Source: an uncultured Spirochaetota bacterium (GTDB lineage Bacteria; Spirochaetota; Brevinematia; Brevinematales; JAOACQ01). Taken from it: a stretch of DNA of 64,000 nt. Below, in pieces: positions 4,033 through 16,952 of the stretch. Location: the NCBI GenBank assembly GCA_963835575.1, contig CAWIGG010000002.1, positions 1,632,001 to 1,696,000 on the forward strand. The letters are read 5' to 3'. A program made the position numbers and the translations under genes. A model generated the notes under the pieces. The model was not told where the DNA came from, did no database searches, and saw only the letters and a program-made list of their open reading frames with translations. Positions within the stretch are counted from its first letter, which is position 1, and each line of letters opens with the position of its first letter.

Positions 4033-4980
4033 TTATTTATTCTCAGGAGCTTTTATTTCCTGGACATAATCCTTTACCAGACTTTCCACTCCGAAGCTTT
4101 CATACCTGATTTTCTGGTTGTAAAAGATCGATACGATAAACGCGGCGGCAACGGCCCCTAAAAATAATTCGAGCAGTATGTAGAATAACGCATAAACGCC
4201 GACACTGATCATCATAATCATGGCCGAACCGCTGAAAATAAAGTTGAATAATTGAAAGACCGCTCCGAAAATGATCGCGATAAAAATCAATAGAAGGAAA
4301 AGGAGTAAATAAGCCCCGACCAAACCAAAGAAATTATAACTTCCCAGCTTAAAAGCGCGCATCACGGCCTGTCCGCCGGGTAGATTTTCCTTGATAATAA
4401 CCGGGCAAACCATCGCGTAAACAACGGCGACATACAGCATAAAGATTATTAACGCGATGTATCCGATGATAATACCCGCGATCTTTAATATGAGCATTAA
4501 GATGGCAAGAACTATTCCGGCGCCGATGGCGATGGCAAGTCCGATCCCGATCATAGGGAGCAGGCTGAACATGAGCGAGCCCAGCTTCTTCCCCACGACT
4601 TTGAATGATTCCCTTAATGTCCATTTTTCTCCGACAAAGGATTGGAGAAAGAGATGGCTCATCAGGCCGCTGTAAAACATGGCCGGAATCAGTAAAAGAA
4701 TTATCAGAACAAAAGTCCAGCCCATAATCGGTCCGGCCAGCGACATAACCTGACTGCTGGACATGCTTGAAATATCGCTTACAATGTTTGAAAACTGCCC
4801 CGTGATTTTTGTGTAAAAACCGCCGAAATACAACAGAGCGCCGATTGCCCCGAACAGCACTAATAAAAAGAGGAAAAACAACAGATTGATCTTTAAAACA
4901 TCCTTGAACTTGCTGAAGCTCATACGGAAAGTTTTGTCAAACAGGCTGCCTACACCCATGGGTTTCAACTCCACACTCAT
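4033..4980 (-). CDS. Multi-pass membrane protein (GDPD-membrane-domain-like) of the MoxR operon
   Basis: LKPMGVGSLFDKTF N-terminus, about 6 TMs, Y..QKIRYESF C-terminus; GGAGG RBS. Confidence 0.65.
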   Translation of the reverse strand: MSVELKPMGVGSLFDKTFRMSFSKFKDVLKINLLFFLFLLVLFGAIGALLYFGGFYTKITGQFSNIVSDISSMSSSQVMSLAGPIMGWTFVLIILLLIPAMFYSGLMSHLFLQSFVGEKWTLRESFKVVGKKLGSLMFSLLPMIGIGLAIAIGAGIVLAILMLILKIAGIIIGYIALIIFMLYVAVVYAMVCPVIIKENLPGGQAVMRAFKLGSYNFFGLVGAYLLLFLLLIFIAIIFGAVFQLFNFIFSGSAMIMMISVGVYALFYILLELFLGAVAAAFIVSIFYNQKIRYESFGVESLVKDYVQEIKAPENK

Positions 4981-10453: not shown

Positions 10454-10533
10454 GGGAATCCTCCTAACATTTCCAAAAACTGAAGGTTTTTGGAAATGAC
10501 TCAATTATAAATTTTTTTGGATAATTGTAATTC

Positions 10534-10613
10534 TGCTGCCGCTGAGAGTCCGCAAAATAAAATAAGTTTTAATTCTTGTTAAACTTTCGAACCAGGCGAA
10601 CTCAGCGGCTGCA
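10534..10613. repeat. REP-like inverted repeat
   Basis: TGCTGCCGCTGAG (10534-10546) / CTCAGCGGCTGCA (10601-10613). Confidence 0.45.
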
Positions 10614-10695
10614 TGATTCGATACAATGGCTCTTATTTTACAGCATATCATCTGTTTTTGCAAAAAGAATTGGTATTATATTATTGGAAATTAAA

Positions 10696-10748
10696 TTACA
10701 GGAAGGCACGAAGCGATGCACTGAGCGAAAGCCGAAGTGACGAGAAGG
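10696..10748 (+). repeat. Periodic repeat arm (TTACAGGAAG GCACGAAG...) containing a REP-like CACTGAGCGAAAGCCGAAGTG
   Basis: Inverted partner is the reconstituted IS110 target CTTCGTGTCTTCCCGTCTTCCTGTAA (10897-10915 + 14242-14248). Confidence 0.55.
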
Positions 10749-10927
10749 TTAAAATTTGAAATTAAATGTTTTCATACAACTCTAATATTAATTTATATTA
10801 TAATATTTTTTACAATTTAAAATTCACTTTTGAAATCAAATATATTTTGACATATATTGATTTATTTTTTAATTATGAAGATTTATTTACTCAAAACTTC
10901 GTGTCTTCCCGTCTTGTAAGCTATATT

Positions 10928-11140
10928 TTGGAGAAAAAGTTTACAAAAAATAATTCTTCAGTAGAATACCTCCTTGTGGAAGTTGTTGCTCACTACCCGC
11001 CTGCCTTCTGGTTTGAAACCAAGGCACACAGGAAGATTGCCAACTCCACAAGGACCGTTTTGGTCTCTTAAAACAATTGCCAGGATATTCCCTTGAATAA
11101 TCCTGTCGCTCATTACAAGGGTGCCGAAATGGAACGGTCT
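10928..11140 (+). ncRNA. Predicted IS110 bridge RNA (ends approximate)
   Basis: 5' hairpin, then two internal-loop stems (TCCTTGTGGA-AGTTG/CAAC-TCCACAAGGA with TGCCTT..AAGGCA tip; GACCGTT/AACGGTC with CAGGAT..ATCCTG tip). Loop segments match the target and donor junction sequences. Confidence 0.8.
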
Positions 11141-11157
11141 GATATTTTAATCTGCTG

Positions 11158-12832
11158 TTGCCTGTCGGTTTTTATAACATGCTTCATGGACATACGGCAG
11201 GGTTCCCGTTAAAATAAAACGGGAGAAAAAGATGGCAAGATTTGAAAAGAACAGCCTGGAGCAGGGTGAGTTCCTCGCGATCAATATAGGCGAGCAGTTT
11301 GATGAGAATTCCAGAGAATTTATACTAAAAGAATTCATCAAAAACCGTATTAAACTGGAGGATTTCGCGGCTTACTATAAGAACGACCATAGAGGCAGAG
11401 AGATTAAAAATCCTCGGGATGTGATCTGTGCGGTACTCTACGGTTACATTACGGGAAATCGTATCAGCCGAAAGATAGAAGATTTGCTGAAAAAACACAT
11501 TGGGTTTATGTATGTTTCAAACCGGCTGAAAATTGACCATTCGGTAATTTGCGAGTTCAAGGTACTTTTTCAGGAAAAGATCGAGGAGTTGTTCAGCCAG
11601 CTTTTATATATACTCAACGAAATGGGGTCTATAGATTGGGACATGGTAGTGGGTGACGGCACAAAGATCAAGGCCTACGCGAGTAAGAATAAGAATGTGG
11701 GAAAGAAACATACCCGGAAGCTGATGGACACTTACCAGAAGATGGCGGAAAAGATTGTGAAACAAGACCTGGAACTGGAAGAATCTTACCGGGAAGGCAA
11801 GCTGGAGCAGCCTTATTACGAAGCGGAGAAGAAGCGGGTATCAAGGCGGAAAAAGATTTACGATAGTGTTTTGAACCAAATCGATGAATACAAAAAACAG
11901 GTAGAGAGAGGGGAAAAGACAGACGAAGAATTCACCAACCTGACTGATCCCGAAAGCAAGCTGATGTCTGGAAATCCGCATAGTGTGTTTATACAGGGAT
12001 ATAATTCGGCGATGATGGTCAGTAATAATGATGTGATTATAGATTTTGAAGCAATCACAACACCGGAAAAACAGCATACGGAAGAAATGGTAAAGAGGGT
12101 GGAACAGAAAAAAGCGGAATTAAAAGTTGATAAGGCTAGCAAATACCTTTTTGATTCGGGTTTTCAGGACATGGAAGAGACAATCCGGATGGTGGAGGAA
12201 GGAAAAGACCTTTATGTGGATACGAAAGAGCGGGATTTCAGTGATAAATCACAGAAGCGAAGAGACTTTAAACTGGAAAAGATTGATGACGAATATATCC
12301 TGGGATGCCGGGGCGGCCGTAAGGAAAATGGGTATTTAGATCGAAATAACCAAAGATATACATTTTTGTATTCACGGAAGGGCTGTGAAAGATGTCCATT
12401 TTTCAGTGAGTGTTATAAAAACATCAAACCGAAAACACAGCAAAAGACAGTAATTTTCAGTGAGTTTGAATTGAATAATCGGTCTAAGATTGATGCTTAT
12501 TTAACAAAACTTTACAGCGAAGAAGGGCAAAAGATATACAACCGCAGGATAGGTAAAGAACACGTATTTTCAAACATCAAAACACAGAAGGGTTATGTTC
12601 AGACAGTTTACAGAGGTCAACGGAAAGTGAATTTGGAGCTATGCTGGGTATCCCTTGCGCATAATTTTATGAAATATGCCCAATATTTGAGAAAATAGAG
12701 AGGATTTTGTATAGTCTGAGTATCGATTATTCGAAATTTATTATTAAAATCAGCTAAGCTGACAAAATTTTTATTTGCCCGCTTATTGTAAGGGGCTGGT
12801 TTGACTCCGAAAATGAAATAACCGACAGGCAA
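11158..12832 (+). mobile_element. IS1182-family insertion sequence
   Basis: 13-bp TIR TTGCCTGTCGGTT/AACCGACAGGCAA; 4-bp TSD GCTG (11154-57, 12833-36). Confidence 0.9.
11232..12698 (+). CDS. IS1182-family transposase
   Basis: DUF772-like N-terminus, DGTKIKAYAS, NLTDPESKLM, QGYN, FDSGF, CxxC finger, EHVFSNIK, RGQRKV...AHN. Confidence 0.9.
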   Translation: MARFEKNSLEQGEFLAINIGEQFDENSREFILKEFIKNRIKLEDFAAYYKNDHRGREIKNPRDVICAVLYGYITGNRISRKIEDLLKKHIGFMYVSNRLKIDHSVICEFKVLFQEKIEELFSQLLYILNEMGSIDWDMVVGDGTKIKAYASKNKNVGKKHTRKLMDTYQKMAEKIVKQDLELEESYREGKLEQPYYEAEKKRVSRRKKIYDSVLNQIDEYKKQVERGEKTDEEFTNLTDPESKLMSGNPHSVFIQGYNSAMMVSNNDVIIDFEAITTPEKQHTEEMVKRVEQKKAELKVDKASKYLFDSGFQDMEETIRMVEEGKDLYVDTKERDFSDKSQKRRDFKLEKIDDEYILGCRGGRKENGYLDRNNQRYTFLYSRKGCERCPFFSECYKNIKPKTQQKTVIFSEFELNNRSKIDAYLTKLYSEEGQKIYNRRIGKEHVFSNIKTQKGYVQTVYRGQRKVNLELCWVSLAHNFMKYAQYLRK

Positions 12833-12845
12833 GCTGGAGGAAAAA

Positions 12846-14120
12846 ATGCTAATCCGGGATGCTATCGGGATTGATCCCGATTCACAACAGTATGTGTGTA
12901 TGTATGTCAAAGCGGAAGACTGGAAAACGGAACGGAAAGCCTTTCCGGTTACCACAAGCGGCCTTGATAATCTGATCGAATGGACTCGGTCGAAAAATGA
13001 CCCGATTATCGCCATCGAGGGAAGCAACGGGCAGAGTAAGCCCTTAGAGAAAGTGCTTCGTAAGGAATCGATGACCTATTACTCGTTTAAAGCAAGGGAT
13101 GTTGAACAAAAGAGGAAAAGCCAGCTCCCGGCGGGAAAGAACAACGAAAAGGATGCTCATGCCGCCGCTCTTTTGGCTTTAGAGCGTGAAATGAACGGTT
13201 CTCTGGAAAAATGGAGAAGGGTCTATCCTGTTGACAGCGAATTACAGACGATAACCCGGAAATATGAAAGTGTAAGCGGCAGGATCACAGAGGAAATATC
13301 CGGGCTGTGGAAGCTTTTATGCGAGGCTTCCCCGGATGTTTACCTGTTCTTAAGCGGCAAGAATATGGAGACGGATAACAGACATAATGTTTTGAATAGC
13401 GCAGGAGTACTGAATTTGCTGTGTAATTGTCCCGATTTAAGCCAATGGAGGAGATTAAGTGCGGAGAAAATGAAAGAGCTGATGGGTGGAGGCTCTTATA
13501 GAGGCCGGGATAAGACCATCGCCGGCTTACAGGTAATAGCCCAAAGAATCTTGGGTGTAGCGGGCCCCATTTCCATGATGATCCGGCAATCTGCTGAAAA
13601 TATTATTCTTTTGAAAGGCCATAAGGAAGAAATGAAGAAGATTTTGGATAATCTGGCTGAATCCAGGGAAGCTGTCCGGGTTTTAGCCTATGACGAATCC
13701 AATGGCAATGGGTTGAAAGGAATCGGCGTGATCACTGCCTCTACGATGATAGCCGAGATTATTCATATCAATCGTTTTGTTAAAGAGGACAGCCTGGCGT
13801 TATATGCGGGATTCGGTATGGTGGAAGATGAAACCGGAAAGAAAAATAGGGGTGAAAGAAAGAAGATGAAACATACTCACGATTATAACCGCCGTTTGAA
13901 AAACGCCTTTATGAACGCGGCCAAGAACTTTGTTCACTGGAATCCGGACCACCATATTTCCGGCATGCACAGGAATTTGATAAAAAATGGAATGAGCAGG
14001 CTCGAAGCGAATAAAAGGGTTGCCAGAGCATTAGTCCGTAAGATATTTCGGATATTAAAGGACTATGAGTCTGAAAATATAAGGAAAATGGAAGAAAACG
14101 GGGTGGCAAAAGTGGGTTAG
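12846..14120 (+). CDS. IS110-family recombinase (RuvC-like DEDD domain + Tnp20 domain)
   Basis: IGID, AIEGS, KNNEKDA, GIGVITASTMIAEI..INRF..EDSLALYAG, NRRLKNAF, ARALVRKIF; GGAGG RBS. Confidence 0.9.
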   Translation: MLIRDAIGIDPDSQQYVCMYVKAEDWKTERKAFPVTTSGLDNLIEWTRSKNDPIIAIEGSNGQSKPLEKVLRKESMTYYSFKARDVEQKRKSQLPAGKNNEKDAHAAALLALEREMNGSLEKWRRVYPVDSELQTITRKYESVSGRITEEISGLWKLLCEASPDVYLFLSGKNMETDNRHNVLNSAGVLNLLCNCPDLSQWRRLSAEKMKELMGGGSYRGRDKTIAGLQVIAQRILGVAGPISMMIRQSAENIILLKGHKEEMKKILDNLAESREAVRVLAYDESNGNGLKGIGVITASTMIAEIIHINRFVKEDSLALYAGFGMVEDETGKKNRGERKKMKHTHDYNRRLKNAFMNAAKNFVHWNPDHHISGMHRNLIKNGMSRLEANKRVARALVRKIFRILKDYESENIRKMEENGVAKVG

Positions 14121-14256
14121 AAACCCTGCGGAAATATTCCGCGAGCAACACCTCCATTTTCTTCCGCCTTTATTATATCGAACTACTGAGGTTTTTTAAA
14201 TATTTTGATTGTTTTTTTCTTGACTTAACTAAAACAATCTTCCTGTAAAATCATTA

Positions 14257-15048
14257 TTATGCAACGCAGGACATGACTGTTTTAGCGCGGTCTGACAATT
14301 TAGTCAGCCTGTTTATTTCTGATTCCATCATGATATCGCCGATCTGTTTTTTAGAAAGGATATACAATTCCTCAAACCTGAGGGCTTCGTTCAACGCGCT
14401 TTCATTTGTCAGCATGACATCACGGGGCAATACAACCTTCCTTGTTTCAATGCAGTCAATATTTTTTGATACAGCCGGATTCTTTAAGAAGTAGTCTATA
14501 CTGACAGCGCTGATGCTGCCTCCGACTGTAAATGAAAATCCTTCCATTTTGGACCTTTTGCCGACATATCCGATCAGGTCCATTAAAAATTGGGAATCGG
14601 GGGTAATGGCACTGTCCATAAAGGAGGCGCTTAAATCCGTTCTGCCCAGCGTGATATTGTCGAGCATCCCCTTACCCATCAGTAAAATCTCTTCCAGCTG
14701 GCCAATGGAATTTTTTGTTTCAATATTAATTGATAATTTTATTTTGTGGTCTTTATAAATACTTTTATAGGCATCCAGGAATTTTTTAAGCCCGAATTTA
14801 CTTTCCACCATCGGAGAGATGAGTCCGTCAACGCCGATTTCAAGCGAATCCTTGATATCCCTGAGGGCTTCAACTCCGCCGATTTTGAGATAAAGCTTTG
14901 TTCCCGCTTGAGTTGTCAGCCTTCTTAAGCGTACAAGATCATTAAAAGAGGAACCTTCGGCTTCAAATTCGGCTTTGACAGCATCCAGATGGAACGTTTC
15001 TTTAAGCAGAAGGATTTGTTCATAAATCTCTTTTTCTATTCCAAACAT
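14257..15048 (-). CDS. HpcH/HpaI aldolase/citrate-lyase family protein
   Basis: VKAEFEAEG, LKIGGVEA, PMVES, INIET, GRTDLS. Confidence 0.75.
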   Translation of the reverse strand: MFGIEKEIYEQILLLKETFHLDAVKAEFEAEGSSFNDLVRLRRLTTQAGTKLYLKIGGVEALRDIKDSLEIGVDGLISPMVESKFGLKKFLDAYKSIYKDHKIKLSINIETKNSIGQLEEILLMGKGMLDNITLGRTDLSASFMDSAITPDSQFLMDLIGYVGKRSKMEGFSFTVGGSISAVSIDYFLKNPAVSKNIDCIETRKVVLPRDVMLTNESALNEALRFEELYILSKKQIGDIMMESEINRLTKLSDRAKTVMSCVA

Positions 15049-15186: not shown

Positions 15187-16952
15187 GGCCCTGCTGAAAA
15201 AATTCAAACACAAGCATAGGGGATATTCCGGCAAATTTTCAACCGCACAAGGAAAAAGATTAAGAAATCAAAGGCCATGTCGGCGGCAGCCTTCGATTTA
15301 TCAGCCAAATAGCCCCGATATCTCTTGAAATTAATCCCGATTCCCCTTAAAAGCATGCGGGTTTTGACTTTTACCAGACCACGGAACAAAATCCTGCCGC
15401 TCAAATACTTTGGTTTCAATAAACTCATCAATCCTTCTACGGCAGGGCGTAGTCCCATCAGAAATTTTCCTGCATCCATACATATCAATTCCAAAAATTC
15501 ATCCATCCATTCCCTTTTGGCGTCTATTACCAGCCGACTTTGCTTCTTGCCGACACAGGCCAGACAATTTTCTTTCTTATCGCAGGCGGCACATTTTTTT
15601 ACATCAAAATTCAATACCACGGAACCATCTTCATTTTCAATAATGCTATTCGGGATTTCTCCCGCCGGACACATCCCATATTTGCCGGTTTTTGGGTCTG
15701 TATACTCAGAAAGTTTCGCTTTGTTTTTTATCCCTTCCAGATCGACGCCGCGTATCGCGCTCATTACCAGTTGAACGTCTTCGCCGCTCTCATTCCGAAG
15801 GTCTTCAGAATTATAACCGCCATCGCTTATCGCTGTTTCAATATTCGTTTCCTTTTTTAAATTAGATAGTTGCCTGCGGAATAAATCCCCATCGTCAGCA
15901 TTATTCGATGCGGTTTCTATGCTGGTAATCACCTGCATCGGATTTTGAGGGTCACAGGTTTCAACCGCGTTCACCTTATACCCGACATACTGTTTTCCCC
16001 GCTTCTCCCGGTAGGTCGCGTCTTCGTCCACCGGCGACTGCATCGATGAGGCTTTGATTTCCCGCGGCAGCTTCAGCGTCACCTTGCCTTCTTTTTCTAT
16101 CCGGCATTGTTCCCGCAAAAGTCTCATTGCCTGCCGGAAACTCTTTTGTTTCCTGACTTTATTGTGAAACACGTTCTCTGTAATCAGCCCGAATATTTCC
16201 TCGCCAATTTCCACCGTTTTCGATTCGTAATTCTCCTTTTTCAGTCGATAACTGAATCCGTCCTCATTTTGTTTTAGAAAATCCTTACATCTTTCACTTA
16301 AGGAAAATCCAGCATTGGAAACATCTTCCGCCATATTGGACAACACTTTATGAAACAGCATAACCCGATTCAGCCGCTTGATATTGGCCCCAATCATTAC
16401 AGAATCTGTCCTCTGCAGTCCGGTTTTGATCCCGACCTCTCCAATTAAAAGATCCCGAAACTCATCAAATATAACGTCAAAAAGCCCGTCCTGATTCTCC
16501 GCCACAGCGGCACGAAAATAGTATAACGTCCTGATCGACATCTGCTGCGCGTTGATGTCTTCCAATCCCAGCGCGTATCGAAACGATAAATCATATCGAT
16601 ACCGCTCAAACAACTGTTCATCGGTCAGAGAGAATAGCTCTTTCATGATTTCCAGCCCGGCTAATATGTTGACCGGGAAATTACTCCTACCAAGTTTTGG
16701 GTCATATAGTGGAGCAAACTTCCGCTCATTTATTTTTGAGAAAACTTTCTGGTAAAAAAGCCCGGCCCAGCTTTCATTTAAACTTTCTCTCATTTCCTGG
16801 TTCATTTCATATCTTACCGGATATAAATCCTGTTCTATATGTCTCTGATTCAGCTTGAACATTTTGACCTCTCTCTGATTCATGTGCATATATTATAACG
16901 AGTTATGCAACTTTTGTACATGAATCGGTAGGATTGTTTTTGCAGTAGGGCC
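15187..16952 (-). mobile_element. IS1182/IS5-like insertion sequence
   Basis: TIRs GGCCCTGCTGAAAAA / GGCCCTACTGCAAAA; 6-bp TSD ATTTAT (15181-86, 16953-58). Confidence 0.85.
15204..16862 (-). CDS. DDE transposase (DUF772 + DDE_Tnp_1 type)
   Basis: GRSNFPVNIL, LTDEQL, RTDSVMI, DEDATYREK, GYK, SDGGY, CxxC, RPAVEG, FRGL; likely start MFKLN. Confidence 0.85.
   Translation of the reverse strand: MFKLNQRHIEQDLYPVRYEMNQEMRESLNESWAGLFYQKVFSKINERKFAPLYDPKLGRSNFPVNILAGLEIMKELFSLTDEQLFERYRYDLSFRYALGLEDINAQQMSIRTLYYFRAAVAENQDGLFDVIFDEFRDLLIGEVGIKTGLQRTDSVMIGANIKRLNRVMLFHKVLSNMAEDVSNAGFSLSERCKDFLKQNEDGFSYRLKKENYESKTVEIGEEIFGLITENVFHNKVRKQKSFRQAMRLLREQCRIEKEGKVTLKLPREIKASSMQSPVDEDATYREKRGKQYVGYKVNAVETCDPQNPMQVITSIETASNNADDGDLFRRQLSNLKKETNIETAISDGGYNSEDLRNESGEDVQLVMSAIRGVDLEGIKNKAKLSEYTDPKTGKYGMCPAGEIPNSIIENEDGSVVLNFDVKKCAACDKKENCLACVGKKQSRLVIDAKREWMDEFLELICMDAGKFLMGLRPAVEGLMSLLKPKYLSGRILFRGLVKVKTRMLLRGIGINFKRYRGYLADKSKAAADMAFDFLIFFLVRLKICRNIPYACV

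Follow-up and report, generated by a model that had tools for sequence, protein, structure and literature searches.

A probable bridge-RNA-guided IS110-group element, split by a nested DDE insertion sequence, in a Spirochaetota genome

Introduction

This work asks whether an interval of 3330 bp in the genome of an uncultured Spirochaetota bacterium holds a mobile element guided by its own RNA, and whether it holds one element or two. The interval occupies positions 10912-14241 of the window, the whole stretch of 64,000 nucleotides (nt) that was analysed (G000:C2:1632001-1696000; genome size 4.39 Mb). It carries two open reading frames (ORFs), 11232-12698 (488 amino acids, aa) and 12846-14120 (424 aa), both on the plus strand, as are all features below that are not marked (-). 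Recombination guided in this way is known from IS621 of Escherichia coli, which combines a bridge recombinase with a bridge RNA (Durrant et al. 2024, PMC11208160; Hiraizumi et al. 2024, PMC11208158). An initial annotation had assigned the interval to the same architecture. Our analysis indicates with high confidence that positions 10912-14241 are an IS110-group element that moves by bridge-RNA-guided recombination and that has been split by an unrelated DDE insertion sequence (IS). The IS621-type assignment is supported by the protein domains, the predicted fold, the position of the RNA, the CT core, the covariation of guides with flanks, and the junction promoter.

Results

The interval holds two nested elements

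DNA searches of the same genome found six copies of the IS110 element. Measured over bounds equivalent to 10912-14241, four of them are 1651 bp long and two, the window copy and a copy at C5:162.7 kb, are 3330 bp long. The six copies differ by 0-3 bases, and the left end that would code for the RNA is invariant in all of them. What the initial annotation had taken for one element readable from end to end is two nested elements, the four shorter copies being without the inner one. The inner element is a DDE IS of 1675 bp (11158-12832) with 13-bp terminal inverted repeats (TTGCCTGTCGGTT), of which the genome holds 24 full near-identical copies. Its transposase ORF (11232-12698, 488 aa) matches PF13751, PF05598, and PF01609, a set that we take to be typical of IS1182/IS5-like elements. 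Comparison with the uninterrupted copies, in which GCTG is single, identified a GCTG target-site duplication on its two sides (11154-11157 and 12833-12836). The uninterrupted element is also present in three of the four public metagenome runs compared, whose contigs join 11153 to 12833; no empty allele of this locus was found in the contigs from the four runs. Two other readings of the interval were rejected. The whole 3.3 kb is not one IS110 element, because the inner IS is independent and missing from four copies, and the 5' non-coding region is not part of the DDE element, because 22 other DDE copies occur without that region.

The recombinase start is 14 nt downstream of the nested IS, which itself begins 15 nt past the last paired base of the RNA model described below. 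The RNA region, the ribosome-binding site GGAGG (12836-12840, read from the sequence), and the recombinase ORF are all whole despite the insertion. At the 3' end of the nested IS, a promoter-like TTGAGA-17-TATAGT (12687-12715) faces the recombinase gene and could drive it in the interrupted copies.

In both interrupted copies, which lie at different loci, the nested IS occupies the same base position, points the same way, and is bordered by the same GCTG duplication. The two copies are identical at all but 3 of 3330 bases, and each sits in a cognate target site. Cargo-bearing IS110 loci have been reported (bioRxiv 10.64898/2026.08.14.744561). The 3330-bp composite might then itself be mobile, the bridge system having carried the nested IS as cargo to a second site, an explanation that we regard as possible while leaning against it. 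The alleles at 13384 and 13460 run counter to it: the window copy groups with two of the uninterrupted copies and the other nested copy with the other two, so descent of both from one nested ancestor would require gene conversion or repeated changes. In its 24 copies, moreover, the nested IS prefers a T-run, a duplicated 4 bp that is usually GCTG, and an A-run, and the site within the IS110 element fits this hot spot; two independent hits are therefore at least as likely. The two nested copies would go back either to independent hits on the hot spot or to a move of the composite with gene conversion afterwards. Like the loci that Hu et al. report in that preprint (2026), the window element exceeds about 1.5 kb by foreign DNA between its ends. 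The preprint gives 2,999 elements above 2 kb, 1,474 of them without another transposase or integrase, and by our subtraction about half of these elements hold one. Unlike in the cargo loci described there, the extra DNA of the window element is one complete IS, which bears its own inverted repeats and is flanked by its own duplication.

Copy flanks define the core and the target

The letters that the initial annotation gave for the two junctions are all in place. The left junction reads CTTCCCG (10905-11), TCTT (10912-15), and GTAAGCT (10916-22), and the right one TAAAACAA (14230-37), TCTT (14238-41), and CCTGT (14242-46). TCTT is thus present on both sides; as the crossover core it gives way to CT once the six copies are compared. 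Four copies have T at position 10912 and two have C, so that this position is host flank, outside the element. A diverged remnant elsewhere in the genome (G000:C2:1329623-1330118, L013/L040) has 86% DNA identity to the IS110 element and two stop codons, and keeps only the last third of the gene and the complete right end. The flank adjoining the remnant differs, and its right-end similarity to the element extends only through AATCT. Because 10912 varies and the similarity stops at AATCT, the crossover core is CT, at 10913-10914 on the left and at 14239-14240 on the right. The TCTT common to both junctions is partly coincidence.

Host DNA on the left is CTTCCCG followed by a pyrimidine (left target flank, 10905-10912), kept in the flanks of all six copies. 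On the right it is TCCTGT (right target flank, 14241-14246), the same at all six; the right target guide, apart from its core bases, is the reverse complement of this string. By inspection, the element ends lack any inverted-repeat relation. A core dinucleotide shared by both junctions, ends without terminal inverted repeats, and a duplication limited to the core mark IS110-group bridge-RNA systems, and the element shows all three.

The flanks of the six copies give the target CTTCCCG[Y]-CT-TCCTGT. Unoccupied 16-mers of this target occur 16 times exactly in the genome, each with a single CT, and a further 22 times at one mismatch and 49 times at two. By our own arithmetic, about 0.004 exact 16-mers with one two-fold position would be expected at random. 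The target is the junction that precedes the last unit of short tandem arrays of the 8-mer CTTC[CG][CT]G[CT]. There are 39 such arrays genome-wide, with 2-4 units each, and 30 of them terminate in CTTCCTGT; those in the window lie at 10698-10713 (-) and 10897-10912 (+). On a contig from another sample, an element 98.7% identical adjoins at least three CTTCCCGT units. The 8-mer arrays often adjoin further short repeats such as TTCGCGTCCATTCGCGTG, and a near-target with two mismatches lies on the opposite strand 200 bp to the left of the window copy.

The left end is predicted to fold as a bridge RNA

The initial annotation described the 5' non-coding end as a hairpin plus two internal-loop domains, a description borne out by the fold and by its conservation in relatives. 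The minimum free energy of 10925-11157 is -69.7 kcal/mol, while its shuffles average -50.3 (z -4.4; 0/200 shuffles equal it). The predicted fold consists of a hairpin and two domains. In each domain an internal loop separates the outer stem from an inner hairpin, and the guide strings sit within the internal loops. The 5' stem-loop (10928-10961) is A/U-rich and recurs at the equivalent place in the two nearest relatives (-5.0, -2.2, and -3.1 kcal/mol). The fold, the alignment, and the covariance model agree on the two domains that follow. The putative target-binding loop domain spans 10972-11053. Its outer stem pairs 10972-89 with 11039-53 (99% paired, 5 pairs compensatory) and encloses the left target guide (10993-11002), an inner hairpin (11003-25), the right target guide (11028-35), and a handshake dinucleotide AU (11036-37). 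The putative donor-binding loop domain spans 11055-11138. Its outer stem pairs 11055-60 with 11133-38, as placed by fold and alignment, and the left donor guide (11069-77), an inner hairpin (11079-11109), and the right donor guide (11113-19) lie between the two strands. A structured RNA with two internal-loop stem-loops, in the left end and upstream of the recombinase gene, is a mark of IS110-group bridge-RNA systems.

A protein search with the recombinase returned 215 relatives at E <= 1e-10 among 8000 scored candidates. The related loci come from public genomes (16) and metagenomes (79). Fourteen of the 16 genome loci are in Spirochaet- records, and one is on a contig of G005, a genome of the window's own GTDB family. 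The recombinase gene is in none of four same-genus genomes and in one of 11 other genomes of the family. In the upstream regions of the relatives, the scaffold is strongly conserved, in contrast to the first loop, which is hypervariable on both sides. RNAalifold on 43 distinct sequences recovered the outer stems and the second inner hairpin, with compensatory change in 11 of 31 pairs. The covariance model built from this alignment matches the window once, at 10970-11147, and matches 89 of the 95 related loci, in each upstream of the gene and on the same strand. Four of the six loci missed are short of upstream DNA. In the alignment fitted to the model, 98.5% of cells pair, compared with 29-51% when the partners are slid, and 13 pairs are changed on both sides, compared with 4-7 in the slid controls; 0/500 shuffles reach the observed values. 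The fold and covariation analysis that the initial annotation had suggested, carried out on 10925-11157 and the relatives, thus supports both the structure and its pairing.

Some relatives differ in the build of this region. In eleven loci (L043, L044, L046-L048, L055-L057, L102, L111, and L136), the left end is about 75 nt longer than that of the window element. The extra module lies between the -10 box and the target loop and is conserved and G-rich, with G runs followed by GAGACTAA..TTGTGGATATGTGGATAA; it is present neither in the window element nor in its two nearest relatives. On the metagenome contig L065, the RNA model matches at 1317-1482 and 4086-4230, 2.8 kb apart, a spacing suggestive of two tandem or closely placed elements.

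The guides covary with the flanking DNA

In the window, both sides of each loop match the DNA that they are proposed to read, as the initial annotation had noted. The left target guide CTACCCGCCT (10993-11002) matches the left target of the window, CTTCCCGTCT, at 8/10 positions, and at 9/10 in copy C, whose flank has C at the eighth position. The right target guide ACAGGAAG (11028-35) is the exact reverse complement of CTTCCTGT (8/8). In the second loop, the left donor guide TAAAACAAT (11069-77) equals the last 9 nt of the right end, the left donor at 14230-14238 (9/9). These are the final bases of the element, as the right ends of the remnant and the relatives confirm. The right donor guide TTACAAG (11113-19) is the reverse complement of CTTGTAA (10913-19; 7/7), that is, of the core and the first 5 nt of the left end.

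Of 96 loci, 50 fitted a strict scaffold pattern, and at these the guides of related elements were compared with their own flanks. Left ends were called by CTTGTA[AG] and right ends by AAAACA..CT, with one row per distinct guide, and the poorly matching rows L093, L102, and L054 were retained in the counts. For the right target guide (34 loci, 24 distinct guides), the mean match to the cognate flank is 4.88 of the 6 non-core bases, compared with 1.64 for non-cognate flanks. At least 5 matches were reached in 71% of cognate and 3% of non-cognate comparisons, and 0/100000 permutations reach the observed value. For the left target guide (34 loci, 29 distinct guides), the mean is 6.38 of 8 and the non-cognate mean 4.09; at least 7 matches were reached in 55% versus 2%, and 0/20000 permutations reach the observed value. 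The covariation of loops with flanks, which the initial annotation had named as a test, is therefore present in the relatives. The nearest relative, L058, whose protein is 80% identical, has guides quite different from those of the window element. Its left target guide matches its own flank at 10/10, and its right target guide at only 4 of 6 non-core bases. First-loop sides that match and covary with the target flanks, and second-loop sides that match the element's own ends, are both characteristic of the IS110 group.

The donor loop and the element ends are conserved across the relatives. In L043 and L063, the left end reads CTTGTAG and is paired by a right donor guide CTACAAG, a compensatory change; the left donor guide matches at only 7/9 in most relatives. 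In 28 of 31 distinct cases, the dinucleotide that follows the right target guide is complementary to the final dinucleotide of the right end, and this handshake-type complementarity includes five AA/TT switches.

Covariation of guides with flanks cannot by itself tell RNA pairing from DNA pairing, and none of the public runs listed with this stretch is an RNA run in which a transcript could be seen. We nevertheless consider it highly improbable that the left-end repeats of the end and target sequences work as DNA, serving as protein-binding sites or sub-terminal repeats. The stems around the guides keep pairing through compensatory changes, the conserved junction promoter described below points into these guide-bearing stems, and the homologous IS621 has been shown to use RNA (PMC11208160, PMC11208158). 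Bridge-RNA guidance hence remains the preferred reading. Chance matching in an AT-rich, repeat-rich region has a negligible probability: the target is of low complexity and the 8/10 match alone arose in 1436 of 20000 shuffles of 10925-11157 (233 nt), but for the other three matches the single counts were only 51, 47, and 402. Shuffles with at least two of the matches numbered 42, and 0/20000 had all four. The same arrangement also recurs in the relatives with different guide letters.

A putative promoter would be rebuilt at the predicted circle junction

The right end contains a -35 box, TTGACT (14220-14225), and the left end starts with the right donor TGTAA and a -10 box, TAAGCT (10917-22; 10915-10922 together). 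On the donor junction AAACAAT-CT-TGTAA predicted by the initial annotation, the two boxes form TTGACT-N17-TAAGCT; the 17-nt spacing is correct and the motif is conserved in the relatives. CTTGA is invariant in 34/34 distinct right ends, at a fixed distance from the core, and the next base is C in 33. The left ends read CT-TG and then TAAGAT, TAAGCT, TAAGTT, or TAATAT. The sequence motif and its conservation thus point to a sigma-70-type promoter across the joined right and left ends, while none of the six integrated copies has a -35-like hexamer at that distance.

By homology with IS621, the element would leave as a circle in which its right end is joined to its left end over one CT core, so that the TTGACT-N17-TAAGCT promoter is formed. 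From this promoter, transcription of the left end would yield a bridge RNA of roughly 210-230 nt, to which the recombinase would bind. The donor loop would pair with the circle junction TAAAACAAT-CT-TGTAA and the target loop with a genomic site CTTCCCG[Y]-CT-TCCTGT. The recombinase would then exchange strands at the CT core, and the insertion would produce no duplication other than the core.

Two further signals were observed near the ends. A consensus scan identified a promoter-like TTTACA-16-TAGAAT inside the left end (10940-10967), which would start transcription at the first stem of the target loop, so that integrated copies would give a transcript lacking the 5' hairpin. A perfect 6-bp hairpin, GCGGAA-ATA-TTCCGC (14128-14142), lies just 3' of the recombinase stop. 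The diverged remnant has kept it, and it may protect the region of the junction promoter from read-through.

The recombinase has an unusual predicted active site

The 424-aa protein encoded at 12846-14120 matches PF01548 (E 4e-13, 49.8 bits; cut-off 29 bits) and PF02371 (E 7e-13, 49.3 bits; cut-off 21.3 bits), and the presence of both domains is the operational definition of the IS110 family (PMC11208160). Its AlphaFold2 model has a predicted local distance difference test (pLDDT) score of 87.6. The top PDB folds are IS621 (8wt9, E 9e-11) and ISCro4 (E 4e-10), followed by TasR and Nop5-type proteins. The initial annotation had called the recombinase long, which is true in comparison with IS621 (326 aa) but not for the family, whose range is 300-460 aa (PMC11208160), nor for the clade: among the best 120 of the 215 relatives, most have 455-475 aa, and the nearest (80% identical) has 424 aa. 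In the model, the extra length relative to IS621 appears as a helical insert of about 70 aa (residues 163-232) between two long coiled-coil helices.

A profile of 24 clade members matches IS621 at E 5e-13 and aligns D10, E58, and D103-A104 with D11, E60, and D105-A of IS621. The column of IS621 D102 holds Asn100 in the window protein, so that the tetrad corresponding to the canonical DEDD (D11, E60, D102, and D105) reads D10, E58, N100, and D103. Asn occupies this column in 24/24 aligned members and in 108 of the 111 proteins, among 120 homologues, that contain the Tnp-loop motif. The column of the S241 nucleophile holds Thr330, followed by Gly331 in place of the S241-G242 pair; Thr is found there in 23/24 aligned members and 107 of the same 111 proteins. 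The residue preceding this Thr is S (74), K (17), E (7), T (6), or A (3), and the loop of the window protein is E-T-G, which is serine-free. The same genome contains further IS110-family genes of other clades (G000:C2:475443, C5:7117, C2:1620128, and C2:1856108; L137-L139 and L146). Three in-genome paralogues that were aligned (381, 250, and 410 aa) carry the canonical Asp and Ser there.

D102 of IS621 keeps the S241 loop in place via G242, and mutants of either residue had lost recombination activity (PMC11208158). We rate as an even chance that the recombinases of this clade cut through the threonine (Thr330), with Asn replacing the third acidic residue and a 5'-phosphothreonine-DNA intermediate. 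The six near-identical copies in cognate sites argue that an enzyme with an E-T-G active site was working recently. We had considered Thr330 and Asn100 as a novelty of this clade and dropped the idea, because S-T-G, including in the IS1492 group, and KTNRxD occur in other clades among the rows listed in Supplementary Table 1 of PMC11208160. Since KTNRxD is found in other published rows, N100 is a variant within the family and not a reason for exclusion. The predicted active site thus departs from the textbook DEDD/Ser, as it does in some other family members. A literature search for a threonine or DEDD variant in IS110 gave nothing relevant by title or abstract.

Discussion

Several observations weigh against bridge-RNA guidance or narrow the support for it. 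The third base of the left target guide is mismatched at all occupied sites and at all 16 exact empty sites. The flank test leaves out 46 loci, and its ends were called by motif, with some calls that look wrong (e.g. L093 and L054). The alignment used to count paired cells was fitted to the covariance model, which favours structure, and L076 and L077 have no match to this model despite 1.5 kb of upstream DNA. The predicted 5' hairpin of the RNA is weak. A search of region 10500-14600 against Rfam 15 with E up to 1 gave no match, and the public runs that contain this stretch are sediment-metagenome DNA contigs, with no RNA run listed. The circle or tandem junction has 0 occurrences in the assembly, and no circle junction was found in the contigs of the four public metagenome runs. 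With Asn100 and Thr330 at the aligned columns, chemistry identical to that of IS621 cannot simply be assumed.

Against these points stands a broad likeness to IS621. Both have a two-domain recombinase with a RuvC-like and a Tnp domain. IS621 codes for an RNA in the left end, in which a 5' stem-loop is followed by the target loop and then the donor loop (PMC11208160), and the window element is predicted to do the same. In each loop, the 5' guide matches the top strand to the left of the core and the 3' guide is complementary to the core and the right side. The CT core and the promoter rebuilt on the circle (PMC11208160), a target that is a dispersed genomic repeat, and the handshake dinucleotide after the right target guide (PMC11208158) are also common to the two. 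The differences are considerable. Protein identity is only about 15%, the length is 424 versus 326 aa, and Asn100 and Thr330 take the places of D102 and S241. The guides are longer here (8+2 and 6+2 nt), and the two RNA domains are joined by a single nucleotide, whereas IS621 has a linker from C95 to A110 (PMC11208158). The target is an 8-mer tandem repeat in the window element and a repetitive extragenic palindromic (REP) element in IS621. The ISCro4/IS622 bridge recombinases (9t56; bioRxiv 10.1101/2025.05.14.653916) have the same fold and belong to the same kind of system. They are reported as engineered and tested orthologues, while the window element is 13-15% identical to them and known from its sequence alone.

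The IS1111 group belongs to the same protein family and follows the same principle of RNA-guided target and donor recognition. Its guide RNA, which lies at the 3' end, is called seekRNA. As described in PMC11208160, IS1111-group elements have the RNA in the right end, whereas the RNA of the window element would lie in the left end, as in the IS110 group. The sub-terminal repeats of IS1111-group elements are long.

The 2024 study predicted bridge RNAs for 85.7% of IS110-group elements (PMC11208160), and the window element therefore fits a known class. This class of mechanism dates from 2024, and the published family tree already includes a member of the clade (row 617 of the IS110 tree table of PMC11208160, a Spirochaetota member), so the element opens no new question. 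Its value is that of a well-documented natural example for the bridge-recombinase family, with boundaries given by six copies and 16 empty sites in one genome. About 25 related natural pairs of guide and target indicate that the target loop has been reprogrammed in nature, with the scaffold and the donor loop kept constant, and this natural variation suggests that the guides would be programmable. For engineering, the clade would offer 10- and 8-nt guides, a one-nucleotide joint between the RNA domains, the helical insert, and the Asn/Thr variant of the active site.

The neighbourhood of the IS110 element is rich in insertion sequences. One kb to its right lies a second, different DDE transposase ORF (15204-16889 (-), 561 aa), which matches PF13751 and PF05598.

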